A stretch of 64,000 nucleotides of DNA from Bacteroidota bacterium. Its GTDB lineage: Bacteria > Bacteroidota > Ignavibacteria > UBA10030 > UBA6906. How positions within the stretch are numbered: the stretch's first letter is position 1; each line of letters begins with the position of its first letter. Positions 4,305 through 62,790 of this stretch are shown here, in pieces. The stretch spans positions 379 through 64,378 of the forward strand of contig JAUQWO010000020.1 in the NCBI GenBank assembly GCA_030835135.1. The letters are read 5' to 3'. A program made the position numbers and the translations under genes. Below the pieces are notes generated by a model. That model ran no database searches. It was given only the letters and a program-made list of their open reading frames with translations, and had not been told where the DNA came from.

Positions 4305-4311
4305 GGAGTTG

Positions 4312-44398: not shown

Positions 44399-44460
44399 GT
44401 GTGCCGGGGCCCGGTGTCCATGTACGTCATGCATGGTGACCATGCACGACGTGCGGTCCC

Positions 44461-45624
44461 TTACGGCAACTCGGTACCGCGGTTCATGATCCCGATGTAC
44501 TCGCTGTAGCTGAACACCCGGTTGCGCTTGCCGGCGGTGAGTTCCTGCACGATGCCGAGTTGTTGAAGATGAGCGAGCGACTTGTTCACTGTTGCGTGTG
44601 TAAGGCCGGTGCTCCTCACCAGTGAGCTGGCTGTGGCGATCGGGTGTTGCATGAGTGCGTCGTGGATTCGGATCATCGATGCTGCCGGCCGGCCAAGTGG
44701 CGTGATCCTCTCGTGGTCCTTCTTCCGCAGATCCACGAGCTGTTGAGCTGTCTGTACTGCCTGTGTGGCGGTAACGATGACCGCTTCAGCGAAGAAATCG
44801 AGCCATGCTTCCCATTCGCCGGTGAGCCGGATACTATTGAGGAGTTCATAGTACTGACGCCGGTGTGTGTTGAAGTAGAGGCTGAGGTAGAGGAGCGGTT
44901 TGCGCAGCACCTTCTGATCGCACAGCAGCAGCGTAATGAGCAATCGTCCCAGGCGACCATTGCCGTCAAGGAAGGGGTGTATCGTCTCAAACTGCACGTG
45001 GACGAGGGCCGCCTTCAGAAGGACCGGGGATGGTTCCGGTTTGTTGTGCAGGAACAGTTCCAGTGCGTCCATGCATCCGAGGATGTGCTCCGGTGGGGGT
45101 GGAACGAACACTGCATTGCCGGGGCGTGTGCCGCCGATCCAATTCTGGCTCCTGCGGAATTCGCCGGGGGACTGATCTCTTCCACGCCCTTCAGACAGGA
45201 GGACGTTGTGGAGCTCCCGGATAAGGCGGAGTGACAACGGAAAGCCATCGGCCAGAAGCTCCAGTCCGCGGTTGAGAGCTGCGACATATCTGCTCACCTC
45301 CCGAACATCATCCAACGGAACCCCGGGTAGCTGATCCAGTTCGAAGAGCAACAGATCCGACAGCGATGATTGGGTCCCCTCGATCATCGAAGAGAGGACA
45401 GCCTCTTTCCGGACATAGGTGTAGAGGAAGACCGACGAGTCCGGGAGCAGGGTGGAGACACTGTCGAGGCGTCCGAGAGCCAGCATCGCCTCTTCGAATT
45501 TGCGACTCAGTCCCGGTGTCCAGTCGATCGGCGGATGGGGGGGCAATGGTGCGGGGATATAGGCATGGACCGTTTCGCCCGCCGTCGAAGTGGATACATA
45601 TCTGCCCTGGAGACCCCGATTCAT
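44461..45624 (-). CDS. Fic-family protein (class II, autoinhibited) with a C-terminal wHTH
   Basis: The Fic motif is HPFLDGNGRLGRLL. An N-terminal inhibitory SxxxEG motif (SSMIEGT) is present. Confidence 0.85.
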   Translation of the reverse strand: MNRGLQGRYVSTSTAGETVHAYIPAPLPPHPPIDWTPGLSRKFEEAMLALGRLDSVSTLLPDSSVFLYTYVRKEAVLSSMIEGTQSSLSDLLLFELDQLPGVPLDDVREVSRYVAALNRGLELLADGFPLSLRLIRELHNVLLSEGRGRDQSPGEFRRSQNWIGGTRPGNAVFVPPPPEHILGCMDALELFLHNKPEPSPVLLKAALVHVQFETIHPFLDGNGRLGRLLITLLLCDQKVLRKPLLYLSLYFNTHRRQYYELLNSIRLTGEWEAWLDFFAEAVIVTATQAVQTAQQLVDLRKKDHERITPLGRPAASMIRIHDALMQHPIATASSLVRSTGLTHATVNKSLAHLQQLGIVQELTAGKRNRVFSYSEYIGIMNRGTELP

Positions 45625-45894
45625 ACCTTCCTGATCCTAAAATAGCCCCGATTCTTATTTTATTATATTGCGTTATTCTAAAATAATCTAATCGGTGAGG
45701 ATAGTCAAGTGAATTTTGGCCAAATTTGGATGGAATGAGGCCATTCAATGCCGGCCTTCTGTACGCACTTGTCCCGGAAGGACTCGGCATCACGCCGGAC
45801 AGCTTCGCGGGATTCATTTCTCTCACATCCTCCCGTGCGAACAGCACATCATGCGCCGCATTCGGTCAGATGCCCACGGCCTACCTCAACCATA

Positions 45895-46962
45895 CTACTT
45901 CGGTCGGACGGACAGAGAACCGTCAGGGTGGCGGACGATGTTGTCCAGCGTCAGGGTGCAGGGGGCATGATAGATGGCGCGGACCCAGTCCGGCGTATTC
46001 TGTGTGTGCAAGAGCTGCGCCCACTCCATGAACCACACCCATTGTGGTTGTGAAGCCACGATATCCGCCGAAGGCATGGTTCCCACCTCGCCAAGTGCAA
46101 TGAGTTTACCCTGGCCCAGCGTCACCAGATCATCGTGATGGCTCTGTTGCCAATCCTGACGGTAGACATCGGCCGCCAGTATATCCACCGTCCCGATCCC
46201 GGGAAAGTATTCCGCGTAGTCGTAGGCTTCATCATCCGGGGTGTCCCTCGGTGCATTGGCGTTCCAGACCCAGAGCAGATTGTTCAGGTGATGGTGGTTG
46301 GTGAAGTGGTCGTACATCATATTCCACAGCCGCGCGAAACCCTGCCGGCCCGGTTGCTGGCACCACCAGAACCAGACGCCGTTCATCTCATGATACGGCC
46401 GCCACAACACCGGGATGTGCGCGTCACGCAGCTGTTTCAGATACGCAGCCACCTTATCCGCCTGCGCGCGCCACTGCGTGTTCAGCGCGGTTCCCGCGGT
46501 CACCAGCGAATCCCAGTCCGCCGGACTGACGGTGTTCTTCCAGACCCAGATGTCCTCTCTCTTGCAGGAGTCGCCGCGGGAGGGAAAGCAGCTATGCCAC
46601 ATCAGGGTGACGATCTGTCCTTTCTGGTGTGCGGCTCTGGCCCGTTCGATCATTGCCTGGCGCACGCTATCGGGACTCAGGCCGTTGAAGTTCCAGCTGA
46701 AGTCGCTTCCCCAGAGTGCCGGGTACGTACCGGTGAGCTTCTTCACATCTTCATTGAACTCGTAGATGCTGGAAGCGCCGTTGTGCTGTCCGGCCAGAAT
46801 GTACTTTCCCTTGATCTGATACAGAAAGTCGAGGAGAGCACGCGCTTCGGGTGATGCGTTCGGGTTGACGGGTTGCGGTTGATCTTCAGGGCTGCCGCAC
46901 ACAGCGAGTGGTGCCAGCAGCGTGAACAGGATGGTGAGAAGGATCGTTGTGACACGTTTCAT
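45895..46962 (-). CDS. Glycoside hydrolase family 26 (beta-mannanase-like), secreted
   Basis: The ATG at 46962 gives the signal peptide MKRVTTILLTILFTLLAPLAVCG. The GH26-type motif is WRPYHEMNGVWFWW. Confidence 0.7.
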   Translation of the reverse strand: MKRVTTILLTILFTLLAPLAVCGSPEDQPQPVNPNASPEARALLDFLYQIKGKYILAGQHNGASSIYEFNEDVKKLTGTYPALWGSDFSWNFNGLSPDSVRQAMIERARAAHQKGQIVTLMWHSCFPSRGDSCKREDIWVWKNTVSPADWDSLVTAGTALNTQWRAQADKVAAYLKQLRDAHIPVLWRPYHEMNGVWFWWCQQPGRQGFARLWNMMYDHFTNHHHLNNLLWVWNANAPRDTPDDEAYDYAEYFPGIGTVDILAADVYRQDWQQSHHDDLVTLGQGKLIALGEVGTMPSADIVASQPQWVWFMEWAQLLHTQNTPDWVRAIYHAPCTLTLDNIVRHPDGSLSVRPK

Positions 46963-47159
46963 GGGTTCTCGTTCCTGGGGAGTGATCCGAAGATGTGAAC
47001 ACGGGCGATCACTGGTGAATATCGCGAAATTCCCCGACTCATTCAGCATGAAACGATCCGTCTCCTGCGATGTGTCTACGTCCGGTGCGCGCCGATCGCC
47101 GGATCGCGCCTTGATCCGCTGAGTGGGAAACCTGAACCGGGTCCGTTCCCCGCAGGGCG

Positions 47160-49055
47160 TCACCGGAAGCGCTCGATCTCCAGCAGCTTCTGCTTTCCGT
47201 TCTCATTGTGCGGGTTCAGTTCGATCGATCGCCTGAAATTGCGTGCTGCCTCCTCATACTGGTGGCCAGCGAGGAGCGCTTCACCATAGCTGTCATAGAC
47301 ATTGAACGATCCGGGGTACGCATCGATGTTCAACCTGAACAACAGCAGGGCATCCCGGACATCCCCGCGGTTCAGGCATGCGTATCCCTGGCGATTCAAC
47401 TGACTCTCCGTGAACAATACTACCATACTATCCTGCGCTCGTCGTGACTGGTAGAAGGCAGCGGCGCCGGAAGCGCCTTCGCTTCGCAGCGCATTCTCGA
47501 ACTCCGGATCCATCGAGTGAGCGACCTTCCAGTACTTTCTCAGATCCACCTTTGGGGCAGAACAGAGGAAGATCGAATTGTTGTTCTCGTTCGGCCGGCA
47601 ATACCGGTGGGTAAAGACCGCCTTCTTCTCTACGCGGGTGAACAAGGCGTTCAGCTCAGCGCGGGATCTCCCGATGACGACATAGCTGTTCCGGAAGTCA
47701 TCTCGCTGGAGCGAGGTAAAATAGTACCATCCGTCGGTCGAGATGGGCTCGGGCAACCCGTACTGCCTTCCGTGAACATGCAGCGCGGCGGCTTCACCCC
47801 AATCCCCTGCAGCGATCCCGATGCTCTCCGTCGATGTGGACTGCGCATCGTGATACACCCCGGCGACCAGCCGTGCCATCTCCTCCCAACCGAACCGGTC
47901 AGCAACATGTTGTGGCAGATCACGGACCTGGGAATCTTCGGTCTTGATGCCTGCTGTGACGCCCAGCGGTTGAAGATACGCGATGAGCGTGTCGACCGGA
48001 AGGAGGGGGACGAAGTACGGGAGGGCAGGCAGGCTCAGCAGCAGATACAGAACCGGCATGGCATACCGGGGGACCGTCGAGTTCCTTCCGCGTTCCCTCC
48101 TTCCGTCGATCCACCGCTCGATGCCGACCGCACCGGCCGCAATGAGGAGACTGTACATCGGGATCATGAAATAGAACTGGCCGCCCAGAATGAAGATGGC
48201 AACACACAGGACAAGATAGCAGTAGCCGAAGAAGCGGTACGGCGACTTTCTGACGAGCAGGAGGATCAGCCCCGTGATCCATACCGGTGCCGTGGCAAGA
48301 TTGTTGGGGAGGAGCTGATGCCACAGAAATTCGAGGACCGGGGAATCATGGGTGGTTCGTGCGGCGTACGTGGTCGCGTAGGAGAGAAAATACCAGCCGT
48401 GGGTCCATTGCCAGTGGACATACGGGATGGCACCGAGGAACGCAATGAGTGCGGCCAGCCAGATCCATGGTTGTTTGAACCACCGCCGTTCGGGCACGAG
48501 CCAGAGCGAAAGAAAAATGACCAGGCCCAGAAAGAGGATCGTGAGTTTGGTCAGCATGCCGAGTCCGAGCAGCACACCTGCGATCAACCAGAGGCGCTGG
48601 CTGGCACCATTCAGCATTTTGATGATGAGGTAAAGGACCGCGGACCAGAGGACGAAAGTCACAGCATCATAGGTATACAGGGAACCGAAAATGGCGAGGC
48701 CGGAGAAGATGAGGACGATGCCTGTCATGGCGATCGCGTAGCGTTTCCCGCCGAGCTCTTTTGCGATCAGGCAGCTGAACACGATCACCAGAGAGCCACA
48801 GAATGATGCCGCCAGGTGAACGGTCTTCAGCGAATGTCCGAAGAGCACAAGAAAGAGTTTGAGGTAGAGGGGTGAGACAGGAGGCATGTCGAGGTTCGAG
48901 AACGAGAAGCCATCGGCGATCGCGACATAGTACATCTCGTCGCGATGATAGCCATACTCAGGAAGCAGGAGATGGAAGGCAATATTGGCGGCAGCCAGGG
49001 CGAGAATGATGAGCGTTTCGGCAGAGAGGCGAAGCCCCGGGGGAATTCGTTGCAT
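47160..49055 (-). CDS. ArnT/PMT-like (GT39/GT83-type) membrane glycosyltransferase with C-terminal TPR repeats
   Basis: The ATG at 49055 gives MQRIPPG. There are about 11 transmembrane helices and a C-terminal TPR domain (YDSYGEALLAGHQYEEAARNFRRSIELNP). Confidence 0.6.
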   Translation of the reverse strand: MQRIPPGLRLSAETLIILALAAANIAFHLLLPEYGYHRDEMYYVAIADGFSFSNLDMPPVSPLYLKLFLVLFGHSLKTVHLAASFCGSLVIVFSCLIAKELGGKRYAIAMTGIVLIFSGLAIFGSLYTYDAVTFVLWSAVLYLIIKMLNGASQRLWLIAGVLLGLGMLTKLTILFLGLVIFLSLWLVPERRWFKQPWIWLAALIAFLGAIPYVHWQWTHGWYFLSYATTYAARTTHDSPVLEFLWHQLLPNNLATAPVWITGLILLLVRKSPYRFFGYCYLVLCVAIFILGGQFYFMIPMYSLLIAAGAVGIERWIDGRRERGRNSTVPRYAMPVLYLLLSLPALPYFVPLLPVDTLIAYLQPLGVTAGIKTEDSQVRDLPQHVADRFGWEEMARLVAGVYHDAQSTSTESIGIAAGDWGEAAALHVHGRQYGLPEPISTDGWYYFTSLQRDDFRNSYVVIGRSRAELNALFTRVEKKAVFTHRYCRPNENNNSIFLCSAPKVDLRKYWKVAHSMDPEFENALRSEGASGAAAFYQSRRAQDSMVVLFTESQLNRQGYACLNRGDVRDALLLFRLNIDAYPGSFNVYDSYGEALLAGHQYEEAARNFRRSIELNPHNENGKQKLLEIERFR

Positions 49056-49287
49056 GGTGCAAGCCGGTTGGAGGATGAGACAGACTACACGAATATACGG
49101 CAATTCGTGAAAAAATGATTCACATGCGAGACCCGGGTGATCTCCGATTTGGTTCACTTTCTGATTTGGATCATTCTCTGATCCGGCACTCCTGACCGTG
49201 GTCCGTACCTTCACATGGGTGGCGGGGCAGTTGACCGTCGCCGTGCCGTCAAGGCACCACAGGATCGAGCCACGACCAGGAGCAGCA

Positions 49288-50342: not shown

Positions 50343-51491
50343 GTGAAACTCTTTCATATTTCGAACACCAACCAGATCGAAGTTATTGATCAAGCTTCGT
50401 ATCGAGATGAATCCGCGGGAGGCTTTGGAGAAGTCACATTGCAGGAACTCATCGCTGACCACCCCGAATTGATACCTGGCGACGACATCAACCCATCGGA
50501 TCCTCCCCGATTCCTTGTGATACGCAGCGAGGCTGGGGTCACGGCGGGGTCAATGGACATTCTGCTCATCGATCACAAGGGTATTCCGACCGTCGTTGAG
50601 ACGAAACTGATCGATAATCGTGAGATCAGACGGAGCGTGCTCGCCCAGGGGGTTGAATACCTGGCACACTTGAAGACTGAATGGAACGCTCAGCGAATGA
50701 TCGATGAAGGGAGAGCATATTGGAGTCATCGCAAAGGAAATCTAGACACCCAGGCAGTTGAGCGGCTTGGAATTGCGCTTGATGGCGACTTCCTTGAGCG
50801 AATAGACAGCAACATAGGGTCGAACAGGATGCGGTTGATCATCGCCTCCGATGAGATCCCGCCTGAGCTCAAGCAGATCATCGAGTTTCTCAACGACGCT
50901 TCTGACTTTGATATTTATGGTATCGAGGTCCAGCTCTTCAGCGGGAAAGATAGCAACCGAAAGATTCTTGCACCTCGACTTGTGGGTTTGACCGAGGCAG
51001 CCCGGGAGCGTAAGAGTTCAAGCACAGGGTCACGATGGACGTATGAACGATTCATTGAAGAGCTTCAGAGAGAATCCTCATCTGAAGCAGTTGCGTTTGC
51101 CGATGAGCTTCTTCGCTTTGGTGAAGAAATCAGTGGGCGTCCGGTAGAATGGGGGAACGGCAAAGACCGGGGATCCTTCACCGCTCGTCTTCTTGCCGGC
51201 GGAGATCGCTTTAGCCTCTTCTCGGTGTACACCACCGGGGGACTCAGCATCAATTTCGGATGGTCCTATCAAAAGTATCCAGATCTGGGGATCGATGTTT
51301 CGGAGAAATACCGTGCGAGGATCAGGAAAGATCTCGGCATCGATTTCGAGCAGTCGAGTTGGGAGCGTGGGTGGCCGATGACGGACCTTCTGCTCTTGGC
51401 GCCACACAAGGACACGCTTTGTCAGATAGTCAGGGACTTTGTGGACGAGTTGAGTTCAACGCCTTCGGATCGTGCTCAAAGGGGTAGATAG
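50343..51491 (+). CDS. NucS/DUF91-like PD-(D/E)xK nuclease-domain protein with an unknown ~250-aa C-terminal domain
   Basis: The N-terminal segment GSMDILLIDHKGIPTVVETKLIDN...QGVEYLAHL matches the NucS / RecB-like pattern G-iDlL..D..G.lvVvElK....QxxxY. This is the first gene of the low-GC island. Confidence 0.5.
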   Translation: MKLFHISNTNQIEVIDQASYRDESAGGFGEVTLQELIADHPELIPGDDINPSDPPRFLVIRSEAGVTAGSMDILLIDHKGIPTVVETKLIDNREIRRSVLAQGVEYLAHLKTEWNAQRMIDEGRAYWSHRKGNLDTQAVERLGIALDGDFLERIDSNIGSNRMRLIIASDEIPPELKQIIEFLNDASDFDIYGIEVQLFSGKDSNRKILAPRLVGLTEAARERKSSSTGSRWTYERFIEELQRESSSEAVAFADELLRFGEEISGRPVEWGNGKDRGSFTARLLAGGDRFSLFSVYTTGGLSINFGWSYQKYPDLGIDVSEKYRARIRKDLGIDFEQSSWERGWPMTDLLLLAPHKDTLCQIVRDFVDELSSTPSDRAQRGR

Positions 51492-51566: not shown

Positions 51567-52412
51567 ATGCCAAGTTCAACGATCAAGATCTTCCTGGTCC
51601 ACGGGGACCCAAAACGGTTGAAGACCGTAGAGCTTTCGAATTGGACGGGCAAAGGCGTTGCCGGTTCCCGTGCGGAACTGACAGAGGTACTCGCCCGTGA
51701 AGAATCGCAGAAGCCCGGAGTGTACGTTCTCACTGGAGTTGATCCCCAAACGGAGAAAGCCGCCATCTACATTGGTGAGGCAGAGAATATTGGAGAACGG
51801 CTTAAGCCCCATCTTGCCAAGGACTATTGGAATCATGTTGCATTTTTTGTGAGCAAAGATGAGAATCTGACAAAGTCGCACATTCGATTTCTTGAAGGGC
51901 GGCTTATCGAAGAAGCGAAGCTTGCCGGTCGCTATTTGTTGAAGAATAATCAGGCGAGCGGAGCGAAACTCCCGGAATGTGACCGGGAGGATATGGAGAC
52001 TTTTCTTGAGAAGATACGCCAGTTGCTTCCCGTACTCGGCATCGAAGCCTTGGTTCCCAGGCCGAATGCGTCAGAAGAGGGAGTCAACAAGGGAAAATTC
52101 TTTTGTGAGATCAAGCACATAAGGGCGACTGGCTATCTGACGCCCAACGGCATCGTCGTGACTGCAAAATCGCAAGCCGTCCTGGCCGATCGGAATTCTA
52201 CCAAGAAGTATCCATGGGCGAAGATTCGACGCGCCAAGCTCATAGAAGAAGGCATTTTGAAAAGTAGAAAGGATCACCTCGTCTTCACACAGGACCATGA
52301 GTTTACGAGTCCAAGCGCTGCTGCATCAGTTATTCATGGTGGACAGGCGAATGGATTGACGGCATGGAAGAATGCGCAGGGGAAAACGTTGAAAAGTCTT
52401 GAATCCAAATAG
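51567..52412 (+). CDS. GIY-YIG nuclease with a C-terminal DUF4357-like domain
   Basis: The GIY-YIG core is PGVYVLTGVDPQTEKAAIYIGEAENIGERLKPH. A C-terminal domain of about 150 aa follows. Confidence 0.6.
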   Translation: MPSSTIKIFLVHGDPKRLKTVELSNWTGKGVAGSRAELTEVLAREESQKPGVYVLTGVDPQTEKAAIYIGEAENIGERLKPHLAKDYWNHVAFFVSKDENLTKSHIRFLEGRLIEEAKLAGRYLLKNNQASGAKLPECDREDMETFLEKIRQLLPVLGIEALVPRPNASEEGVNKGKFFCEIKHIRATGYLTPNGIVVTAKSQAVLADRNSTKKYPWAKIRRAKLIEEGILKSRKDHLVFTQDHEFTSPSAAASVIHGGQANGLTAWKNAQGKTLKSLESK

Positions 52413-52501: not shown

Positions 52502-54823
52502 TTGATGATCATTCTTGATCTTCACATTGAAGAAGAGCTCAGGAACACCCACAAAGATCTCGCCGGCAATGCCAAACTCCATTCTCCTGAAAGGTTAGAC
52601 GCTGCCTACAACACTTTCCGGGATCGGTTCGGACCCGACAAGCTTGCCCTTCTCGACGGGACCGCACTGCTCAATGCAATGCACCTGCACGGCAACAAAG
52701 AAAGCCTTGTATATTGGTTGGAGTTCAAGGATGATGAAGAATTCCCGGGGATCAGTTTCGGTAGTATCGCCGGAGGGAGTGCTCACAAATTCGGGCTCTT
52801 CCGTCGGAGGGAAACTGGGCAATGGGTTACAGGCGCACCTCAGGCCGAGAGGACGCTAACCGAATCTGAAGCAGTTGTTGTTGCACGGAAACATCGTGAC
52901 CAACTTCTTGAAGGTGTTAAGCGTCTAGAAAGGTTCGAAGCCAATGCCGATGATGCTGCCTATGTGCGTCTCCAGCGGGATCTTGACACATCATGCCCCG
53001 ACGTCAGCGGGGTAGCGTGGGGTCACAAGTACTTCTCCATTCTCTTTCCGGACAAGTTGGATGATTATCAGAATCATCGGTGGCAACGATACCATCTTCT
53101 CAGACTACTGCAACTGCCTCCGGAAGCGCAGGGACTCTATGTCTGCGCGGGTCGCTACGTGACCCTCGCCAATCAGTTCGGTTGGCCGATGCAGCATTTG
53201 ACCGCCACATTGAACGCACGTAACGGGCGACCGAAAAGGTATTGGCGCATCGGGACCGCGCTTGGAGGAAAAGAGAGAATTTGGGACGATATGCTGAGGG
53301 GGCAATATATCGCCATTGGATGGGGCGGCTTGCGTGACCTTTCTGAACATGGTAAAGGGGCAGAACTCAAGTCCGCGTTGAGAAAGATGCTGGAGCCATA
53401 TTACCCCGGAGATCAAAAGACCATTTCTCGCAAGGCGGGTGAGATTCGCAATTTTGTATCGGAGATTAGTGTAGAGGAGAACGACATTGTCGTTGCGGCG
53501 GATGGGGGAAAGGTCCTTGGGATAGGGCGGGTAACAGGTCCTTATCGTTATGAAGACACTCCTCCCAAGGGGGCGCCGCATAGAAGGGCGGTCGAATGGC
53601 TTTCAACGGAAGAATGGAAATTGCCAGTTCCAGAGGGGCTGCGGACTACGGTTGCTGTGTTCAAGAAGGATGAGCAGAATATCCTGGAGATTGAGCGGAG
53701 GTTGTTAACTCCTCTCATGGTTACGTCCCCGGGCCCAAAGAATGGGGGAGGAGGTGGTGGTGGTGAGGGGACGCTCCGACTTACTGGGATTCCGGCTCGC
53801 GTGCAGGCGATACTCGAACGGAAAGGGCAGGCAATACTCTACGGTCCTCCAGGCACTGGAAAGACCCACTGGGGAAGAGAGACCGCTCATGATTTTGCAG
53901 CACTTCGTGCCTTTGGCACGACCTTCACTGAACTTGTCGCTGAGCAGAAAACTGAGGTTGTTGGTTCGAGCGCCGTGCCAGGACTCGTAAGATCGTGTAC
54001 ATTTCATCCGAATTACGGATATGAAGATTTCCTTGAAGGGTTTCGCCCGGCAGCGAATTCCTCCGGACAACTTATCTTCAATCCAAAAGACGGGATATTC
54101 AAGCGCATGTGTGCTGATGCCCGCAGGAGGCCCGAGCGATCATTTGTTCTGTTGATCGATGAGATCAATCGAGGGGATATCCCCCGGATCTTCGGTGAGT
54201 TGTTGACCCTGCTGGAATCTGACAAGCGTGGACTCACCGTCAGTCTTCCTGTTTCAGGAGAGGAGTTCGCGGTTCCCCCGAATGTCTATGTGATCGGAAC
54301 CATGAACACGGCAGATCGATCGATAGCTTTGCTGGATACGGCATTGCGCCGACGATTTGGGTTCGTTGAGCTCTTGCCTGATATGACGGTATTCGGAGGT
54401 GCATCCGTGGACGGGAGAATACCGTTGGGTCCATGGTTGGGAGCGTTGAACGACAGGATTCGAGCACAACTTGGACGGGACGGCCGGAACCTTCAGATTG
54501 GCCATGCTTATCTCCTCGAAAAGAAGGAACCTGTCAGTGAGTTGTCAAACTTTGTCCGGATCCTCTCAGAGGACATCATCCCTTTGATCGAGGAATACTG
54601 TTACGAGGACTACGATGCATTAGCCAAGATCATTGGCGGAAAACTGGTTGACATCCCGAAGCAACGGATCAAGGAGGAGCTTTTCGCGCCAACGAGATGG
54701 GATGAACTGGTGCAGGCACTACTCGAGCCAACGCCAGACATATCAACCGGGAAGGAGGCAGCAGCGACTGTCACGATGCCCGATGAGGTGGAAGATGGAG
54801 AACCTGAAGACGAAGAGAAGTGA
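52502..54823 (+). CDS. mcrB: McrB-family GTPase (AAA+) with a long N-terminal region that includes an EVE/PUA-like modified-base reader domain
   Basis: The Walker A motif is ILYGPPGTGKTHW. McrB signatures LLIDEINRGDIPRIFGELLTLLE and VYVIGTMNTADRSIALLDTALRRRF are present. The N-terminal EVE-like segment is RYWRIGT...RIWDDMLRGQYIAIGWGG...IVVAADGGKVLGIGRVTGPYRYED. Confidence 0.85.
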   Translation: MMIILDLHIEEELRNTHKDLAGNAKLHSPERLDAAYNTFRDRFGPDKLALLDGTALLNAMHLHGNKESLVYWLEFKDDEEFPGISFGSIAGGSAHKFGLFRRRETGQWVTGAPQAERTLTESEAVVVARKHRDQLLEGVKRLERFEANADDAAYVRLQRDLDTSCPDVSGVAWGHKYFSILFPDKLDDYQNHRWQRYHLLRLLQLPPEAQGLYVCAGRYVTLANQFGWPMQHLTATLNARNGRPKRYWRIGTALGGKERIWDDMLRGQYIAIGWGGLRDLSEHGKGAELKSALRKMLEPYYPGDQKTISRKAGEIRNFVSEISVEENDIVVAADGGKVLGIGRVTGPYRYEDTPPKGAPHRRAVEWLSTEEWKLPVPEGLRTTVAVFKKDEQNILEIERRLLTPLMVTSPGPKNGGGGGGGEGTLRLTGIPARVQAILERKGQAILYGPPGTGKTHWGRETAHDFAALRAFGTTFTELVAEQKTEVVGSSAVPGLVRSCTFHPNYGYEDFLEGFRPAANSSGQLIFNPKDGIFKRMCADARRRPERSFVLLIDEINRGDIPRIFGELLTLLESDKRGLTVSLPVSGEEFAVPPNVYVIGTMNTADRSIALLDTALRRRFGFVELLPDMTVFGGASVDGRIPLGPWLGALNDRIRAQLGRDGRNLQIGHAYLLEKKEPVSELSNFVRILSEDIIPLIEEYCYEDYDALAKIIGGKLVDIPKQRIKEELFAPTRWDELVQALLEPTPDISTGKEAAATVTMPDEVEDGEPEDEEK

Positions 54824-56127
54824 ACGCCAACAGCATCATACTGAGCGAATGGGAAACGAGAGGTCCTGAAGCTGGCGCCCCCCTTGCCGGATGGCAATTC
54901 AAAGACAGAGCGAGTCATGATCTTGCTGAACGGCTGACCGACCTTGGTTGGATCGAGATCCTCGAATTGGCTCAGGGGATCGAACTCCGCGCAACGTCGT
55001 TCGTTGGCAGGTTCAGCATTGGCGATATGACCATCACGATCCAACCGAAGATTCAGGGAGCGCCATTCCTGAGTTTGCTTCGATACGCGTATGGATTTCG
55101 GCAGCTTAAGCTCCTCAAACCGACAGCATATGGCTCATCCGCGTGGGATCTCTGCGAGTTGCTCGTTCAGCAATTGATCGCGGAAGCACGGGATCTGATA
55201 GGCCGCGGGGTACACAGGGACTATGAGCGAAGGTCAGCTCGCCTATCCGACCTGCGTGGTAGGATCGATTTTGACAAGTACGTCCGAACGGTAGGTACTG
55301 GCGCTGCAGAGGTACCGTGCACGTACTATCCGCGGACTGACGACACCGTTCTCAATCAGGCAATGCTTGCAGGACTTGAGTTCGCCGCTCAACAGACGAT
55401 TGATGTTGACCTTCGATATCAGGTCAATCATCTGGTCAAGGATCTGCGATCGTCGATCTCCCTCATGAGGCTGAGTGGCAGCCTGATCGAAGATGCGAAG
55501 GGTGCGATTGACCGGCGTACTGTCGCATACGGTCCGCTGCTATCTCTGATCGAGCTGCTCTACGCCGGGCACGGGCTTTCGTTGGACGAGGGAAGGAATC
55601 AGATCCAGCTTTCCGGATTTCTGTTCGATATGAACCGCTTCTTTCAGGCCCTGGTGTCACGGTTTCTCCATGAAAACCTGGAAGGCTATGTGATTCACGA
55701 TGAACACAAGATGAAAGGATTCTTTGAATACGAACCGGCGCACAATCCCAGGGGATATTCTAATTCCGATCTCCGGCCCGACTTCGCTGTGATGGATTCC
55801 TCTCGTCTGGTGACCATCGCGGATGCCAAGTACAGAGACCTATGGAATACCCGGTTGCCACAGTCCATGCTGTATCAACTCGCATTGTATGCCATCGCCC
55901 AGGGGAATCACACACGAGAGAGTGTGATCCTGTATCCCACGCTTTCACGGGGCGCACGGGAACAAAAGATCAATGTCCGGGAACCGATCGCAGGTCATCA
56001 TCAAGCACGAGTCATTCTCAGGCCAATCAACCTGATAGATATGGAAGAGCTCATCTATCGGAGTGATCCAGCAGGACAGGTTGAACGCGTCCAAATGGCG
56101 TCTCAGCTTCTATTCGGCGAAGCATAA
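54820..56127 (+). CDS. mcrC: McrC nuclease subunit
   Basis: It overlaps the mcrB stop by 4 nt. The PD-(D/E)xK motif is DFAVMDSSRLVTIADAKYRD, typical of McrC. Confidence 0.8.
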   Translation: MNANSIILSEWETRGPEAGAPLAGWQFKDRASHDLAERLTDLGWIEILELAQGIELRATSFVGRFSIGDMTITIQPKIQGAPFLSLLRYAYGFRQLKLLKPTAYGSSAWDLCELLVQQLIAEARDLIGRGVHRDYERRSARLSDLRGRIDFDKYVRTVGTGAAEVPCTYYPRTDDTVLNQAMLAGLEFAAQQTIDVDLRYQVNHLVKDLRSSISLMRLSGSLIEDAKGAIDRRTVAYGPLLSLIELLYAGHGLSLDEGRNQIQLSGFLFDMNRFFQALVSRFLHENLEGYVIHDEHKMKGFFEYEPAHNPRGYSNSDLRPDFAVMDSSRLVTIADAKYRDLWNTRLPQSMLYQLALYAIAQGNHTRESVILYPTLSRGAREQKINVREPIAGHHQARVILRPINLIDMEELIYRSDPAGQVERVQMASQLLFGEA

Positions 56128-56213: not shown

Positions 56214-56801
56214 ATGCAATCTGATCTTCTTTTGGAGTTTCAAGGTCCGTACTCTTGGTTTGCGGCGGGGCCTGTCGGCTCAATTCTGGATCCTCCTCAG
56301 GGCAAGGGCCATGGAATATACCTGTGGACAGTCCCCACCGCAAGTGGAGAGTTAGTCTACTATGTTGGTGAAACCGGGCGGCAATTTTCTATTCGATTCA
56401 GGGAACACCTGCTGGCCCAACTGTCGGGCATGTATCATGTCCATGACCCAGCAGCTTTCCAGCTTGGAAAGAAATCCATGCTGTGGCCAGGTCTTTGTGA
56501 TAAACACCATCGCGTCGACCTATGCGAGTTTGTTCAAAGGCTGCCTGAATTGGCAGAACCACTCCAGAAATTCGTGAATGTATTTCATTTCTTTATTGCT
56601 GAGATTGACGTAGACAATCGACTTCGCAAACGCATTGAAGGGGCCATAGCCGATCACCTTGTCCGGCAGCCCGGCATCGTGGGTTCATTCCAGGAAGCGG
56701 GAATCAAATATGTTCGCCGCCGCAAAGATGAGCCCTCCGTTCAGATAGGTTTACGTTCATCCAGAGAAAATTGTGGACTCCCAGCGTGTTTGGAGGCATA
56801 G
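56214..56801 (+). CDS. Small GIY-YIG-domain nuclease (195 aa)
   Basis: The GIY-YIG motifs are GIYLWTVPTASGELVYYVGETGRQFSIRFREHL. Confidence 0.5.
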   Translation: MQSDLLLEFQGPYSWFAAGPVGSILDPPQGKGHGIYLWTVPTASGELVYYVGETGRQFSIRFREHLLAQLSGMYHVHDPAAFQLGKKSMLWPGLCDKHHRVDLCEFVQRLPELAEPLQKFVNVFHFFIAEIDVDNRLRKRIEGAIADHLVRQPGIVGSFQEAGIKYVRRRKDEPSVQIGLRSSRENCGLPACLEA

Positions 56802-56981
56802 ACTCCGAGAGATTCCATTGGCCAGGAACCTCGAATTGGCCCCGCGTGAGCGGAGGATTCCTTGAAGACCCGGCGCGGGGTGTTTAACAATGCAATGATC
56901 TATAGGTGGTATCTCCAGGATTTCGATTCTATCGGCAGTTGTGATGCATAGAGCCGACCCTGTCAAGGAAGGGATGGTGCG

Positions 56982-57767
56982 ATGAAGAGCTTTCCATTTG
57001 GGAATCCAATTCTACCGGTTCAACAATCTGACCGGACCCCTAAGAGGGTATTCGTCCTTGGTGTGTACGCGAGTGCCGTTCACGCACGGTGGCTTCGCGC
57101 CGATGGGTCGATTGCCGTACGAGCTCTTGCGGTATCATCGGAGCCAGAGATCTTTTGGAGGGGTGACGGGGAGGATGAGATAATTGCCAGCATTCCGCTT
57201 CCGGAAGGGGCCGGTCGTCTTGTTTCACCCGGGGAAGGGTTGAACGGCCCCTCCGGTCAAACCCTTGATCAGGACTTTCTCCGACCAATGGGTCTGGATC
57301 GTAGTTCCGTATGGCTTTGCGATCTGCTGCCAGAGAGCCGATGCAATCCCAATCAAGCGAATGCCATCAAACGCGAGTACGATTCGATGAAGACGGCCTA
57401 TTCTTTGCCAGACTTTGACTTTCCGCCTCTGCCGAAAGTTCTGGCCGATGAGAATAGAGTACGCGCCATCGAAACGGAACTCGAAGAGGCGGGATCCCGG
57501 ATATTGGTTACTCTCGGCGATCTGCCATTGCAGTGGTTTGCGAGTCGCCATGGTGCTCATTCACGGTTGGCAGACTATGGATCGACCAATGAGTCGTATG
57601 GCCGGCTGCACGAGATTCGAATAGGAGACAAGCAGCTGCTCTTGTTGCCACTCGTCCATCCCCGACAGGCCGGCCAGCTTGGTGGCTACTCGGAAACGTG
57701 GTGGCAGCTCCACCAGCATTGGATGACTGCTGATGCTCCAGCGATTCTGATCAATGTCCCGGCTTGA
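56982..57767 (+). CDS. Hypothetical protein with a degenerate uracil-DNA-glycosylase-superfamily fold (lacks the GEAPG catalytic motif)
   Basis: Three pattern similarities to family-4 UDG were found. WLCDLLPESRCNPNQ resembles NIVKCRPPQNR. ILVTLGDLPLQWF resembles IIVPLGAVAAEFF. LLLLPLVHPRQAG resembles VFPMFHPAYLLRNP. The N-terminal motif is replaced by VFVLGVYAS. Confidence 0.35.
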   Translation: MKSFPFGNPILPVQQSDRTPKRVFVLGVYASAVHARWLRADGSIAVRALAVSSEPEIFWRGDGEDEIIASIPLPEGAGRLVSPGEGLNGPSGQTLDQDFLRPMGLDRSSVWLCDLLPESRCNPNQANAIKREYDSMKTAYSLPDFDFPPLPKVLADENRVRAIETELEEAGSRILVTLGDLPLQWFASRHGAHSRLADYGSTNESYGRLHEIRIGDKQLLLLPLVHPRQAGQLGGYSETWWQLHQHWMTADAPAILINVPA

Positions 57768-57950: not shown

Positions 57951-59570
57951 GTGAACTGGATCGCCGCCTCTGAAAAAGACACCGCTGCCGCAACGCTTGA
58001 AAAGCGCCTGTGGGACGCCGCCGATCAGTTCCGCGCAAACTCGGGGCTCAAGGCCCAGGAGTATTCCGGCCCCATCCTCGGACTGATCTTTCTGCGCTTC
58101 GCCGAGGTACGCTTCGCCGCCCAGCGGACCAAGCTGGAGAAAGCCCGTGCTTCCTCCCGCCGGGGCAGTCGCGTTGATGAGCCCGCCGCCTACCACGCCG
58201 ACAACGTTCTGTATCTGGCCCCTGAGGCGCGCTTCGATTTTCTGCTGACACTGCCAGAGGCGGCCGACATCGGCGGCAAGGTCAACGCTGCCATGCGCGA
58301 GGTAGAGAAGCACAACCCGCAGCTCGCCGGCGTGCTGCCCAAGACCTTCAACCTCTTCACAGGCACCCTGCTCAAAGAGTTGCTGAAGAAGATCTCCGAG
58401 ATCCCGGCCACGCTCGACTTCGACGCCTTCGGCCGTATCTACGAATACTTCCTCGGCGAGTTCGCCATGAGCGAGGGCCAGGGCGGCGGCGAGTTCTACA
58501 CTCCGGCGAGCATCGTGCGGCTCCTGGCGCAGGTGATCGAGCCTTTCCACGGCCGCATCCTCGACCCTGCCTGCGGCTCGGGCGGAATGTTCGTGCAGTC
58601 GGCCCGGTTCGTAGCCGAGCACCACAAGAACCCTACCGCCGAGCTGTCCATCTGCGGGGTCGAGAAGACCGACGAGACCGGTCGCCTCGCCCGCCTGAAC
58701 CTCGCCGTGCACGGGCTTGAGGGCGACATCCGACACGGCGGTAACGTCAACAGCTACTACGACGACCCGCACGCGGCCACCGGCGCCTTCGACTTTGTGC
58801 TCGCCAATCCGCCTTTCAACGTGAACGCGGTGGACAAGGAGCGGCTCAAGGATCTGGTCGGCGTCGGCCGCCGCTACCCCTTTGGTCTGCCGCGCACCGA
58901 TAACGCGAACTTCCTGTGGATCCAGCTCTTCTATTCGGCGCTCAATGCCAGGGGCCGCGCTGGCTTCGTCATGGCCAACTCGGCCTCCGATGCCCGCTCC
59001 ACCGAGCAGGAGTTGCGACAGAAGCTGATCGAGGCGCGGGCGGTGGATGTGATGGTGGCCGTCGGTTCCAACATGTTCTACACCGTCACGCTCCCCTGCA
59101 CACTGTGGTTTCTCGACCGGGGCAAGGCCAAATCGAAGCGCGCGGAGACCGTGCTCTTCATCGACGCCCGCCACATCTACCGGCAGGTGGATCGCGCCCA
59201 CCGCGACTGGACACCCGCGCAGATCGGCTTCATCGCCAACCTGGTGCGCCTCTATCGCGGCGAAGAGCCCGACTTGACCGTGGGCGGGGAGGAGACGGCG
59301 GCCAAGTTGAAGGAGGTGTTCGGCAAGAAGACCGCCTATGCGAACGTCCCCGGCCTGTGTAAGGCAGCAACGATCGCGGAGATCGAGGCGCAGGGCTGGT
59401 CGCTCAACCCCGGCCGTTATGTGGGCGTGGCCCCGGGCGAGGAAGTGAGCGACGAGGACTTCAAGGCGCAGCTCGAGACGCTGAACGAGGAACTGACAAC
59501 CCTGAACGGCCAAGCGCGTGAATTGGAAACCACTATTGCGAAGAACGTCACCGAGATACTGGAAGCATGA
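57951..59570 (+). CDS. hsdM: Type I restriction-modification system methyltransferase subunit (N6-adenine)
   Basis: It has a GTG start and the motif [13 protein letters not shown] (NPPF). The HsdM N-terminal domain is [33 protein letters not shown]. Confidence 0.95.
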
Positions 59571-59703: not shown

Positions 59704-60972
59704 ATGAAGCGGGGTGGAGATTCGAAAGGGATAGCAAAGGCGCATTGGCAACAACGCCGGCTCGGTGATTGCCTGACGCTGATGTCTGGTGGCACGCCCT
59801 CGAAGGCACGCAACGATTACTGGGGTGGGGACATTCCGTGGGTGTCTTGCAAGGACATGAAAGTACATCGCATTCACGACGCCGAAGACCACCTGACGCC
59901 ACTCGGGGCAAAGAACGGTACTCGCCTGGTCCCAGCCAACACCATCCTATTCGTTGTCCGCGGTATGATTCTGGCGCGAGAATTCCCAGTCGCGCTGACG
60001 AAGCGCACGGTGGCGTTCAATCAAGATCTCAAGGCTGCGAGGCCCGCCGATTTCATCGAAACCGAGTTCTTGTTCCATTGGCTGCGCGCCAATACATACG
60101 AAATCCTTGGTCGTGTTGATGAGGCTGGCCACGGAACAACGCGCATCCAAACGGACCGACTGCTGTCATTGCCGATTGCCGTTCCCCCGCTGCTGGTGCA
60201 GCGACGCATCGCGGGCATCTTGTCGGCCTACGACGAGCTGATCGAGAACAGTCAGCGGCGCATCAAGATTCTGGAGGCGATGGTCCGCGCCCTCTACCGC
60301 GAGTGGTTCGTCTACTTCCGCTTCCCCGGCCACGAATCCGTCCCCCGCGTCCCATCGCCGCTTGGCGAGATTCCACAGGGGTGGGAGGTGAGAGCAGTGG
60401 CCCAAGCTTTTGATATTTCCGGTGGAGGCACTCCATCTCGAAAGGAGGAAGCGTTCTGGGTAGGCGGCACCATTCAGTGGTATTCGCCCAGCGACCTGAC
60501 TGGTGCAGGGACGATGTTCATGGATGATTCCAGCGACCACATCACCGAGCGAGGACTTGCACAAAGTTCAGCGCGGATGTTTCCCGCGCGCAGCGTGATG
60601 CTCACGAGCCGTGCCACCATCGGTGCCCTCGCGATCAACACGCATCCGGCTTGCACCAATCAGGGGTTCATTACTTGCCTGCCGAATGAACGCGTACCGC
60701 TTTACTTTCTGTTCCATTGGCTTACGGAAAACGTGCCGACTTTTCAGCGTATGGCTTCCGGTGCCACCTTTAAGGAAATCAGCCGGGGTGTATTCAAGAC
60801 CATCAATTTCCTGCAACCGCCAGATGAACTGGTCCGACGCTTCGAGGTCATGACTGCACCGATAGCCGAACAGATGCTCGCACTCCAACGCCAAATCAAG
60901 AACCTCCGCCGCACTCGCGACCTCCTGCTGCCGCGCCTGCTGTCCGGGCGGATCGCAATTCAGGAGAACTGA
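59704..60972 (+). CDS. hsdS: Type I R-M specificity subunit (two target-recognition domains)
   Basis: The conserved inter-TRD helices are IAGILSAYDELIENSQRRIKILEAMVRALYREWF and, at the C-terminus, LALQRQIKNLRRTRDLLLPRLLSG. Confidence 0.9.
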   Translation: MKRGGDSKGIAKAHWQQRRLGDCLTLMSGGTPSKARNDYWGGDIPWVSCKDMKVHRIHDAEDHLTPLGAKNGTRLVPANTILFVVRGMILAREFPVALTKRTVAFNQDLKAARPADFIETEFLFHWLRANTYEILGRVDEAGHGTTRIQTDRLLSLPIAVPPLLVQRRIAGILSAYDELIENSQRRIKILEAMVRALYREWFVYFRFPGHESVPRVPSPLGEIPQGWEVRAVAQAFDISGGGTPSRKEEAFWVGGTIQWYSPSDLTGAGTMFMDDSSDHITERGLAQSSARMFPARSVMLTSRATIGALAINTHPACTNQGFITCLPNERVPLYFLFHWLTENVPTFQRMASGATFKEISRGVFKTINFLQPPDELVRRFEVMTAPIAEQMLALQRQIKNLRRTRDLLLPRLLSGRIAIQEN

Positions 60973-60975
60973 CCC

Positions 60976-62790
60976 ATGCGGCTCAAAGAAATCGGAATCA
61001 AAAACTTCAGAGGATATCGGGACGAAACCCGCCTCCCGATCGATCCCAACGTTACAGGCATTACGGGAAAGAATGATGCCGGCAAGTCAAGCATTCTGGA
61101 AGCTCTCGATATCTTCTTTGAGGGAGGTGAAGTAACGCTTGACAAAGATGACTTCAATGTCGCCGAGCCTGAAGGTTCAGTAGAGATTAGGTGCGTCTTC
61201 GAGGGACTTCCCGCTGAGATACTCCTTGATGAAACCAACAAGACGACACTGGCAGCCGAACACCTGCTCAATACTGCTGGAGAGTTGGAAATTCTAAAGC
61301 GCTACAAGCGTAGTTCGAAAGAGCCAGCGGTTTTCATTGTCGCTAACCATCCAGCCGCAGGAGATTTTGATGATCTCCACTTGCTGAAGATCAATGAGCT
61401 AAAGAAACGCGGCGAAAAGCTCGGCGTGTCGGCGGACGATATTGCGGATGCACGAAAGAGTGCTTCGTGGCGTCTAGCGATTTGGGCCAAATCCCCAGAC
61501 TTGAACAAGCAGCAGCGCGAGTTGGAAATCAGCAAGTTCGTTGGCGACTCGAAGGACATTCAGGACAAGTTGTTTAAACAGTTGCCCCTCTTCGCCCTGT
61601 TCAAATCTGACCGCGAAAGTAAAGACAACGACCCGCAAGCCAAGAACCCCCTTCAAGCCGCGGTAAAGCAGGCACAAGACGAGCTGCGGGAGGACATCGA
61701 AAAGATACAAAACGAAGTCCAAAAGCGTGTTCTTGAACGGGCGGCCAAGACATTGGAGAAGCTCAAAGACATGGACGCGACACTGGCATCCCAACTCGTG
61801 CCGCGCTTCAGGAAGGCTCCAAGTTGGACGTTCGACTTCGCCTTGGATGGAGAGGACAACATACCAATAAACAAACGCGGCAGCGGCGTCCGGCGGTTAA
61901 TCCTGTTAAATTTCTTCCGCGCTGAGGCTGAACGCAAGGTCACAGACAAAAAGGCCCCCTCTGTAATTTACGCTTTTGAAGAACCCGAGACATCGCAACA
62001 CCCATCTAATCAAGAGATGCTTGTTCGCGCTTTGGTGCAGGTCGGCAAGAGGGATAACTGCCAGGTGCTCGTAACGACCCACGTTCCAGCTCTTGCAGGA
62101 CTCTTGCCTACTGACGGGTTGCGTATAGTTGAGAAGTCGGCGGCGGGTTGCTCAATTGAATATGGCAACGACACCGTGATTGACCGGATTGCGCAGTCGC
62201 TTGGCGTGCTTATAGACCCTCGTGCCAGCCGCGCAAAAGCACTAGTGCTCGTGGAAGGGCCGGGGGATGTCGTGTTCCTGCGTCACACGGCAGAGCAACT
62301 AAAGGCGGGTGGGCACATTCCCGCAACGCTCGAAGAGAAAGGAATCTTACCTGTCTCAATCGGTGGTTGCGGCCTACTGAGGCATTGGATAGCGAAGCGA
62401 ATCGCCGAGCAGTTTAATATCCCGTGGGCACTCCTCCTGGATTCCGATTTGGGGACTTCCGAGGCGGGGCAGAATTTGACACAAGTGCAGCAGGTCCGCG
62501 CCAACGGCAAGAAGGCTTACGTGACGCGTAAACGTGAGCCGGAGAATTATATCCTGCCAGAAGTAGTAACTCCACACTTCGTAGGTGGAGCAACTGCAAC
62601 TTGGACAGACAGCAGCGATGCCAAGAAGGACATAGGCGCTGCTACATCGAAGGGACATGGCGAGGTTCTTGAGTTCTTCTGGACCAAAATGAACGCCGAT
62701 CAAATTCGTCGAGCTGAAACATTCACAGACAGTGGAACAGATCGCTACGAGTTCACAGAGATTCTTACGGACTTGCTCACGTTGGTATAG
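60976..62790 (+). CDS. OLD-family ATP-dependent endonuclease (ABC-like ATPase plus TOPRIM) embedded between hsdS and hsdR
   Basis: The Walker A motif is GITGKNDAGKSSILEAL. The TOPRIM motifs are LVLVEGPGDVVFL and ALLLDSD. Its GC content is lower than that of the flanking hsd genes. Confidence 0.8.
   Translation: MRLKEIGIKNFRGYRDETRLPIDPNVTGITGKNDAGKSSILEALDIFFEGGEVTLDKDDFNVAEPEGSVEIRCVFEGLPAEILLDETNKTTLAAEHLLNTAGELEILKRYKRSSKEPAVFIVANHPAAGDFDDLHLLKINELKKRGEKLGVSADDIADARKSASWRLAIWAKSPDLNKQQRELEISKFVGDSKDIQDKLFKQLPLFALFKSDRESKDNDPQAKNPLQAAVKQAQDELREDIEKIQNEVQKRVLERAAKTLEKLKDMDATLASQLVPRFRKAPSWTFDFALDGEDNIPINKRGSGVRRLILLNFFRAEAERKVTDKKAPSVIYAFEEPETSQHPSNQEMLVRALVQVGKRDNCQVLVTTHVPALAGLLPTDGLRIVEKSAAGCSIEYGNDTVIDRIAQSLGVLIDPRASRAKALVLVEGPGDVVFLRHTAEQLKAGGHIPATLEEKGILPVSIGGCGLLRHWIAKRIAEQFNIPWALLLDSDLGTSEAGQNLTQVQQVRANGKKAYVTRKREPENYILPEVVTPHFVGGATATWTDSSDAKKDIGAATSKGHGEVLEFFWTKMNADQIRRAETFTDSGTDRYEFTEILTDLLTLV

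Follow-up and report, generated by a model that had tools for sequence, protein, structure and literature searches.

The adjacent genes A and B, which lie on the forward strand of the 64,000-nucleotide stretch of DNA analysed here (the window), are on balance best regarded as independent single-gene passengers of a defence island and not as a two-component system, with B probably a stand-alone glycosylase resembling the Brig enzymes and A a stand-alone nuclease. The two genes are part of a mosaic defence island that extends from ~50.3 to beyond 62.8 kb and combines a NucS-like gene, PDC-S14, McrBC, A, B, and a Type I restriction-modification (R-M) system with an embedded OLD-family gene:

50343..51491, forward strand: NucS/PDC-S11-like nuclease, at the start of the low-GC island
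51567..52412, forward strand: PDC-S14 candidate defence protein (GIY-YIG and DUF4357), the second GIY-YIG gene of the island, unrelated to A
52502..54823, forward strand: McrB-like GTPase (AAA_5) of 773 aa, with an N-terminal reader region matching PDC-S02
54820..56127, forward strand: McrC (Pfam McrBC, 1.5e-29), with an intact PD...(D/E)xK motif (RPDF...IADAKY, from the translation)
56214..56801, forward strand: gene A, 195 aa, ATG start, GIY-YIG nuclease of a small unannotated family
56802..56981, forward strand: A-B intergenic spacer, 180 nt
56982..57767, forward strand: gene B, 261 aa, ATG start, single-domain UDG-superfamily protein of a distinct clade
57951..59570, forward strand: HsdM, Type I R-M methyltransferase
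59704..60972, forward strand: HsdS, Type I specificity subunit
60976..62790, forward strand: OLD-family ATPase-TOPRIM gene (AriA/GajA-like), embedded between hsdS and hsdR
From ~62797, running off the window end: putative open frame that resembles the HsdR N-terminus

A previous sequence-only reading of this DNA had placed A and B in a defence island between mcrBC and the Type I R-M genes, and this description of the locus holds: both open reading frames (ORFs) have the boundaries given above and lie between mcrBC (52502-56127) and hsdM, and all of the strings it quoted are present in the translations, namely GIYLWTV...YYVGETGRQFSIRFREH in A and VLGVYASAV, WLCDLLPESRCNPNQ, ILVTLGDLPLQWF, and LVHPRQAG in B. 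The GC content is 50-55% at 50.3-57.8 kb, whereas the first 49 kb of the window have 61%, and GC3 rises from 0.48-0.59 in the block upstream of hsdM (A, 0.48; B, 0.55) to 0.85 in hsdM itself. No repeats or tRNA genes were found flanking the island. A and B are genuine genes rather than chance ORFs, because homologues of both were retrieved from 5.8 billion protein clusters: 137 for A (best E-value 1e-57, at 51% identity) and 2791 for B (clusters at 90% identity; best E-value 1e-119).

The co-occurrence of the two families was surveyed from both sides. A scan of a genome collection with the A-family alignment yielded 38 loci, which together with three look-up loci gave 41 A-bearing loci, and a B-family HMM run on all six-frame ORFs of these 41 loci found no match. 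A metagenome scan with the B-family alignment yielded 80 loci, and across the 128 loci compared in total, A and B occurred together only in L042, a 2.5-kb wastewater contig with 94.5% DNA identity to the window. Deduplication left 84 B loci, 52 of which have an upstream flank of 1 kb or more, and 33 A loci, 29 of which have a downstream flank of this length. An A homologue was present at none of 85 independent B loci (these 84 and the Variovorax plasmid locus L129), and a B homologue at none of the 33 independent A loci. A third instance of the A-B arrangement was identified in an Ignavibacteriae MAG (GCA_016707525.1, L130), within a McrB(AAA)-McrC-A-B-HsdM block of 91% nucleotide identity to the window; its flanking cassettes differ from those of the window, with no PDC-S14 and with the OLD gene replaced. 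Since all three instances share one McrBC-A-B-HsdM block at 91-94% nucleotide identity, they represent a single evolutionary event.

The dedicated A-B pair envisaged by the sequence-only reading is therefore not borne out. That reading had itself called for a survey of gene neighbourhoods and had named absence of the pair elsewhere as the outcome that would count against it, and the pair is indeed absent outside the lineage represented by the window, L042, and L130. The length of the A-B spacer (180 nt), the difference in GC3 between the two genes, and the 20-fold difference in family size (2791 B clusters vs 137 A clusters) point in the same direction and weaken the claim further. A scan of the spacer revealed neither a sigma-70-like promoter nor a terminator-like site, and the fold energy of its RNA is no better than that of shuffled sequences (z = 0.17). 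In an all-against-all clustering of 449 flanking ORFs, no group of neighbours of A or of B extended beyond four loci. Because A and B are neighbours in one bacterial lineage only, they look like separate passengers of the defence island. The two genes may nevertheless cooperate in this particular lineage, given that their adjacency and the length of their spacer (178-179 nt in L042 and L130) are retained in three assemblies. Recognising A and B as a non-conserved pair keeps a spurious "system" out of the catalogues of defence systems.

Gene A belongs to a small family. Its translation contains the GIY and YIG motifs followed by the downstream Arg and Glu, and the protein has the GIY-YIG fold, confirming the earlier assignment of A as a GIY-YIG nuclease. 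The predicted catalytic set comprises Tyr36, Tyr50, Arg61, His65, and Glu142, with a ~75-residue helical insert between His65 and Glu142, and the protein carries N- and C-terminal beta extensions of its own. At the sequence level, A matches neither Pfam PF01541 nor any other entry of the Pfam, NCBIfam, PADLOC, and PHROGs libraries, and it shows no match to the stand-alone GIY-YIG nucleases R.Eco29kI, T4 EndoII, UvrC N-domain, and PD-T4-3. The other GIY-YIG gene of the island, PDC-S14, has a weak match to the A family at the level of motifs only (hhalign probability 36%). A-family genes occur alone in varied contexts across bacteria and archaea, with neighbours that include NUDIX, integrase, Type I R-M, BrxA, PbeA, and housekeeping genes. 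With its complete predicted catalytic set, A most plausibly works autonomously, as a GIY-YIG endonuclease in its own right.

The position of A also raises the possibility that it serves the adjacent McrBC as an accessory nuclease and is unconnected with B. In the window, A lies 86 nt downstream of mcrC, and in one Planctomycetota MAG two contigs (L018 and L033) have an A homologue that follows an unrelated McrBC at a distance of ~60 nt; the McrB there is only 31% identical to that of the window, and the McrC has no BLAST match to the window McrC. However, these are the only two McrBC neighbourhoods among the 33 A loci, both come from the same MAG, and the remaining A loci have unrelated neighbours. 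In addition, no extra nuclease would be needed by either McrBC, because both McrC proteins keep an intact PD-(D/E)xK motif. We therefore consider an accessory role of A in McrBC restriction highly improbable, and return to the reading of A as a nuclease acting by itself.

The B family is large, and its sequence characters set it apart from the annotated UDG families. The B profile matches 783 representatives at 50% identity (E <= 1e-3), including 181 at E <= 1e-30; nearly all representatives are single-domain proteins of ~260 aa, and they are spread over many phyla. Among 10 longer representatives scanned, no nuclease domain was found, with only one DUF5677 and one DUF2934 detected. The profile is tight and does not reach the canonical UDG families. 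Low scores were obtained in annotation libraries: the family falls below detection at PADLOC, NCBIfam, and Pfam thresholds, the window B scores 20.7 bits against Pfam PF03167, under the gathering cut-off of 24.3, and neither A nor B has a match in PADLOC-DB v2 at E <= 0.1. Some relatives do pass PF03167, for example P0249 with 32.8 bits, and several family members carry the JGI label "uracil-DNA glycosylase". Profile searches of PDB sequences with the B-family alignment A1 and with alignment A2 returned nothing significant. At the fold level, B is an alpha/beta protein built around a central parallel sheet and can be superposed on solved UDGs, with family 4 UDG, UdgX, and family 5 as the closest folds, and the earlier proposal of a UDG fold for B is thus well founded. 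B represents a large, well-delimited, unannotated clade of the UDG superfamily.

The same reading had pointed out that B lacks the GE(A/G)PG catalytic loop, which we can confirm: the motif-A site reads G27-V28-Y29-A30-S31 (GVYAS) and is followed by an inserted beta-hairpin of ~30 residues. The altered site is nonetheless highly conserved. Down to 26% identity, the (near-)invariant positions of the family include G27-x-Y29-x-x-A32-x-H34 at the motif-A site, E54-P55-x-x-F58-W59-x-G61 (EP..FW.G) in the hairpin, N88-G89-x-x-G92 (NGPSG in the window, NGxSG in the family), the motif-B pair H226-P227, H244...W247, and F6, G7, E166, L178-G179, and Y206-G207. In a HMMER alignment to the UDG of S. tokodaii, G89 and G92 of B correspond to the G-x-x-G loop of family 4, and D114 aligns with N82. 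H226-P227, which is invariant in alignment A1 and present in at least 90% of alignment A5, aligns with the His-Pro of 4zbx. Asp114 is found in 23 of 28 distant members and is replaced in the other five, by Asn in two of them. The only cysteines of B are Cys113 and Cys121, neither of which is invariant across the broad family, and B cannot hold a 4Fe-4S cluster because four Cys ligands are needed.

These features bear on the idea that B is a catalytically dead, base-flipping reader that recruits nuclease A, the two forming a modification-dependent restriction module of two genes. The idea draws on the motif-A site, which is without the usual catalytic residue, on the adjacent and co-directional arrangement of A and B with its conserved spacing, and on another subclade of B homologues with an HNH nuclease gene directly upstream, so that a "B plus nuclease" form recurs. 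Against it, the canonical pocket (NGxSG, Asp114, His226-Pro227) is under strong constraint, the family-specific positions Tyr29, His34, and Glu54 are conserved as well, and such residues speak against B as a degenerate protein. Likewise, the absence of nuclease fusions among the 10 longer B representatives scanned and the much greater abundance of B argue against a module with A; the gap of 180 nt exceeds the <=100 nt that separates B from most of its upstream partners; and the HNH-B loci, like the A-B loci, stem from one island lineage. The reader idea is also not supported because the glycosylases Brig1, Brig2, and Brig3 already provide a simpler mechanism. Overall, a reader module of this kind appears very unlikely.

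Rather than a decayed domain, the conservation pattern of B suggests a constrained enzyme with an amine-bearing substrate. UDG families 2 and 5 are active without the acidic motif-A residue. N82 of the S. tokodaii UDG recognises uracil by its Watson-Crick face, and in human UNG the mutation N204D confers cytosine-excising activity. An amine-bearing substrate is suggested because Asp114 of B stands at a position that is Asn in uracil-specific enzymes and an essential Glu in Brig1. Such a pocket could suit a modified cytosine, the excision of which would complement the neighbouring McrBC. Glycosylase chemistry is, however, not assured, because the catalytic Glu, Asp, or Asn of motif A is absent and a beta-hairpin insert takes its place.

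Compared with the characterised UDG families, B differs in several of their defining features. Family 4 UDG (UDGa) has the motif A GE(A/G)PG with a catalytic Glu, and UdgX has GEQPG, likewise with a catalytic Glu, along with a KRRIH loop; B possesses none of these. Both families also contain a 4Fe-4S cluster bound by four Cys, whereas B has only two Cys, and both have a uracil-reading Asn and no ~30-residue hairpin, where B has Asp and the hairpin insert. By contrast, the motif-B His-Pro of family 4 UDG and UdgX, which stabilises the leaving base, is kept in B. The family 5 UDG (UDGb, Thermus 2d3y) carries the motif GLAPA and an Fe-S cluster, both of which are missing from B, and the GINPG motif of family 2 (MUG/TDG) differs from the corresponding site in B. 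Families 5 and 2 are repair enzymes, not defence-island genes.

Probable functional parallels to B are found among the UDG-superfamily glycosylases that act in phage defence. Brig1 excises alpha-glucosyl-5hmC, its essential E147 occupies the same position as N82 of the S. tokodaii UDG, and 42 homologues of it were reported, mostly in Actinobacteria (PMC11078745). Like B, Brig1 is a single-domain UDG-superfamily protein (coincidentally also of 261 aa), has the S. tokodaii family-4 UDG (4ZBY) as its top structural match, and places an acidic residue at the base-reading site (E147 in Brig1, D114 in B). It is encoded by a solo gene in a defence island and makes abasic sites in modified phage DNA. 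Unlike B, Brig1 keeps a recognisable motif A, GLNPG, where B has GVYAS followed by the inserted hairpin, and its 42 homologues contrast with the ~2800 clusters of the B family in many phyla. Membership of B in the Brig1 family was considered and rejected, as hhalign of profile A1 against the Brig1 sequence gave a probability of 0.1% (E = 0.48). Two further enzymes are also UDG-superfamily defence glycosylases: Brig2 acts on phages with thymidine hypermodifications (10.1101/2025.10.29.685425), and Brig3 excises 5hmC, with an accessory deglucosylase, BapA, that widens its range (10.64898/2026.02.25.707755). BapA, the operon partner of Brig3, is a deglucosylating hydrolase and not a nuclease. The key residues of Brig3 (N50-P51-S52, W100-F101, H125, D127, and N225), compared by published residues only, have no counterpart pattern in B.

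By analogy with these enzymes, we infer for B a glycosylase activity on non-canonical bases and a role in defence. B alone would flip a non-canonical base of invading DNA into its predicted pocket, formed by the NGxSG loop, Asp114, and His226 together with the family-specific Tyr29, His34, and Glu54, and would cut the N-glycosidic bond as a monofunctional DNA glycosylase. The resulting abasic sites could block phage replication or be cleaved by host AP endonucleases, while A, as a GIY-YIG endonuclease, would act independently. Base-excision immunity, as exemplified by Brig1, Brig2, and Brig3, is a very recent entry in the catalogue of phage defences and was found via functional screens and structure-guided search. 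In size, the B family (~2800 clusters at 90% identity, 783 at the 50% level) greatly exceeds the Brig1 family, and it could constitute a novel type of base-excision enzyme directed against phages. Should B indeed be active as an anti-phage glycosylase, this form of immunity would gain a major clade that solves the active site differently and may have a new substrate specificity, and an active enzyme of the B type could also serve in the mapping of modified bases.

The genomic contexts of B homologues are consistent with a role in defence, with some exceptions. Five of the eight independent B loci with long flanks contain R-M, type IV, toxin-antitoxin, or other defence genes, and two more contain mobile-element genes. 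B homologues were found beside a Type ISP R-M enzyme, an HTH/M78 pair, and HipA (L043); beside SNF2, DUF4391, and a methylase, with prophage-like genes adjoining (L044); between a GmrSD/HsdR/YgjP group and an OLD-family gene (L045); and among a transposase, a resolvase, and a reverse transcriptase (L046). In L099, the B homologue is next to a large reverse transcriptase, a helicase, and an orthologous McrBC (McrB 57.6% and McrC 48% identical to those of the window), with the McrB orthologue, also of 773 aa, two ORFs downstream of B. As a general partner, McrBC was rejected, being found beyond the window lineage only in L099 for B and in one MAG for A. In the conjugation region of a Variovorax megaplasmid (L129), the B homologue is annotated as "hypothetical protein", and the PLSDB plasmid records with a B homologue number four, all of them Variovorax megaplasmids; none was found in 50,697 phage records. 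Recurrent families among the 149 immediate neighbours of B include HNH, Nmad3, ParE, HipA, YgjP, mREase_IV (type IV restriction), mad genes, and OLD/AriA. It is thus plausible that the B clade, with its repeated location in defence and mobile regions, is a new branch of base-excision immunity.

It could be argued that B is an ordinary, sporadically distributed DNA-repair glycosylase, acting for instance on bases altered by deamination or oxidation, that it plays no part in defence, and that its position in the island is incidental. Its nearest folds are repair UDGs, one homologue (L048) lies among housekeeping genes, and the JGI annotations mentioned above use the name of a repair enzyme. The prevalence of defence and mobile genes at the long-flank loci, the location of B inside a low-GC inserted block, and the small number of PLSDB records, which is consistent with a patchy distribution, all weigh against this explanation, and the Asp at the base-reading site, in place of Asn, argues against uracil as the substrate. 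A pure repair function is accordingly unlikely in our judgement, and a defence glycosylase acting alone remains the reading that we prefer for B.

B may not always act alone, as suggested by the close upstream ORFs and subclade-specific partners observed at many loci. A co-directional ORF is present within 100 nt upstream of B at 36 of 63 loci. In L043, L044, L049, and L051, the upstream gene encodes a ~120-aa protein with no assigned family, and in L043 and L044 this protein and B are kept as a pair at 69-83% and 71-86% identity despite differing flanks. The window contains no remnant of the ~120-aa protein, which has no similarity to A. The HNH nuclease upstream of B in L053, L055, L056, and L058 is 271-275 aa in length and lies 52-58 nt from B; these loci form a single island lineage in which the B proteins are 85-91% identical and the genes at -2 and +1 are common. 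A further pair, Nmad3-B, occurs in L082, L083, and L114.

Such arrangements could indicate that B is a modular component whose upstream partner can be exchanged, being GIY-YIG here and HNH, Nmad3, or the ~120-aa protein elsewhere, so that A-B is the version of one lineage. The occurrence of the ~120-aa protein-B, Nmad3-B, and HNH-B pairs in separate subclades agrees with this possibility, as does the precedent of Brig3 with its accessory BapA. The domain legend of DefensePredictor names both NMAD and UDG for systems that are predicted but unvalidated, although not necessarily within one system; beyond this legend, the Nmad3 literature as available to us held nothing relevant. On the other hand, each partner is limited to a narrow subclade, the majority of upstream genes are singletons, many B genes lack a co-directional gene close by, and the spacer in the window measures 180 nt. 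We regard interchangeable partners as a minor, rather improbable option. The partners found in subclades keep alive a weaker and more general form of the pair idea, in which partners vary, without lending support to A as one of them.

A more specific version of this proposal appears quite unlikely, namely that B is a new UDG-superfamily family whose remodelled site (GxYxSA.H, the EP..FW.G hairpin, and Asp114) would read hypermodified phage bases in combination with interchangeable upstream partners. If true, this combination of a glycosylase-fold sensor or effector with a partner that cleaves strands or modifies bases would be a type of cassette not yet described.

In the subclade nearest to the window's 261-aa UDG-fold protein (B), a protein of ~120 aa is conserved directly 5' of the B homologue (L043, 5711-5971; L044, 5600-5971; L049, 730-1104; L051, 2806-3162), and at these four loci it gave no family match. 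As this small protein is kept with B despite differing flanking genes, it is a candidate for the true partner of B in this subclade. In another subclade, the gene directly 5' of the B homologues encodes Nmad3 (PF18754, E 4e-75; L082, 647-1102; L083, 2331-3206; L114, 5334-6224). NMAD and UDG are both among the domains of the predicted but unvalidated defence systems of DefensePredictor.

The defence island of the window was also compared with the syntenic island of the Ignavibacteriae MAG GCA_016707525.1 (L130), and three genes of the window are relevant here:

51567-52412, PDC-S14 (PADLOC E 2e-98), a candidate for a defence gene, combining GIY-YIG with DUF4357
52502-54823, McrB, 773 aa, with a long N-terminal region matching PDC-S02 models
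60976-62790, OLD-family ATPase-TOPRIM gene (AriA/GajA-like), inserted in the Type I operon between hsdS and the HsdR-like open frame

The McrB reader domain is exchanged between the window and L130: DNA similarity across McrB starts only at window position 53802, and the McrB equivalent in L130 (5530-7844) is split into two separate genes, DUF8426 and an AAA_5/McrB_lid part. The PDC-S14 gene, which is absent from the L130 island, is the second GIY-YIG gene of the window island and is unrelated to the 195-aa GIY-YIG nuclease gene (A). The slot of the OLD-family gene is occupied by other genes in L130, and a similar OLD-family gene is found at L045 (8837-10642), where a B homologue lies directly 5' of it. 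Synteny with L130 is otherwise kept, except that ~4.8 kb of the window (44388-49164) has no counterpart there and may be a further inserted cassette; this segment carries ORFs of 387, 422, and 715 aa on the minus strand, and its AT skew is locally strong, reaching 0.27 at 48-49 kb.

A-family genes are also found beside McrBC in two contigs of one Planctomycetota MAG (L018, 1894-6573; L033, 1939-6574), in which McrB (997 aa) and McrC (350 aa) are followed by an A-family GIY-YIG gene. The gene order McrB-McrC-A is the same as in the window, although the McrBC proteins are only distantly related. On one contig, two A copies (L020 and L036) are separated by ~18 kb.

At L099, a protein of 1275 aa that weakly matches reverse transcriptase (1536-5363) is encoded upstream of a B-McrBC cluster; its flanking genes encode DUF2326, CBS, and helicase proteins, and it may represent a defence-associated reverse-transcriptase system.
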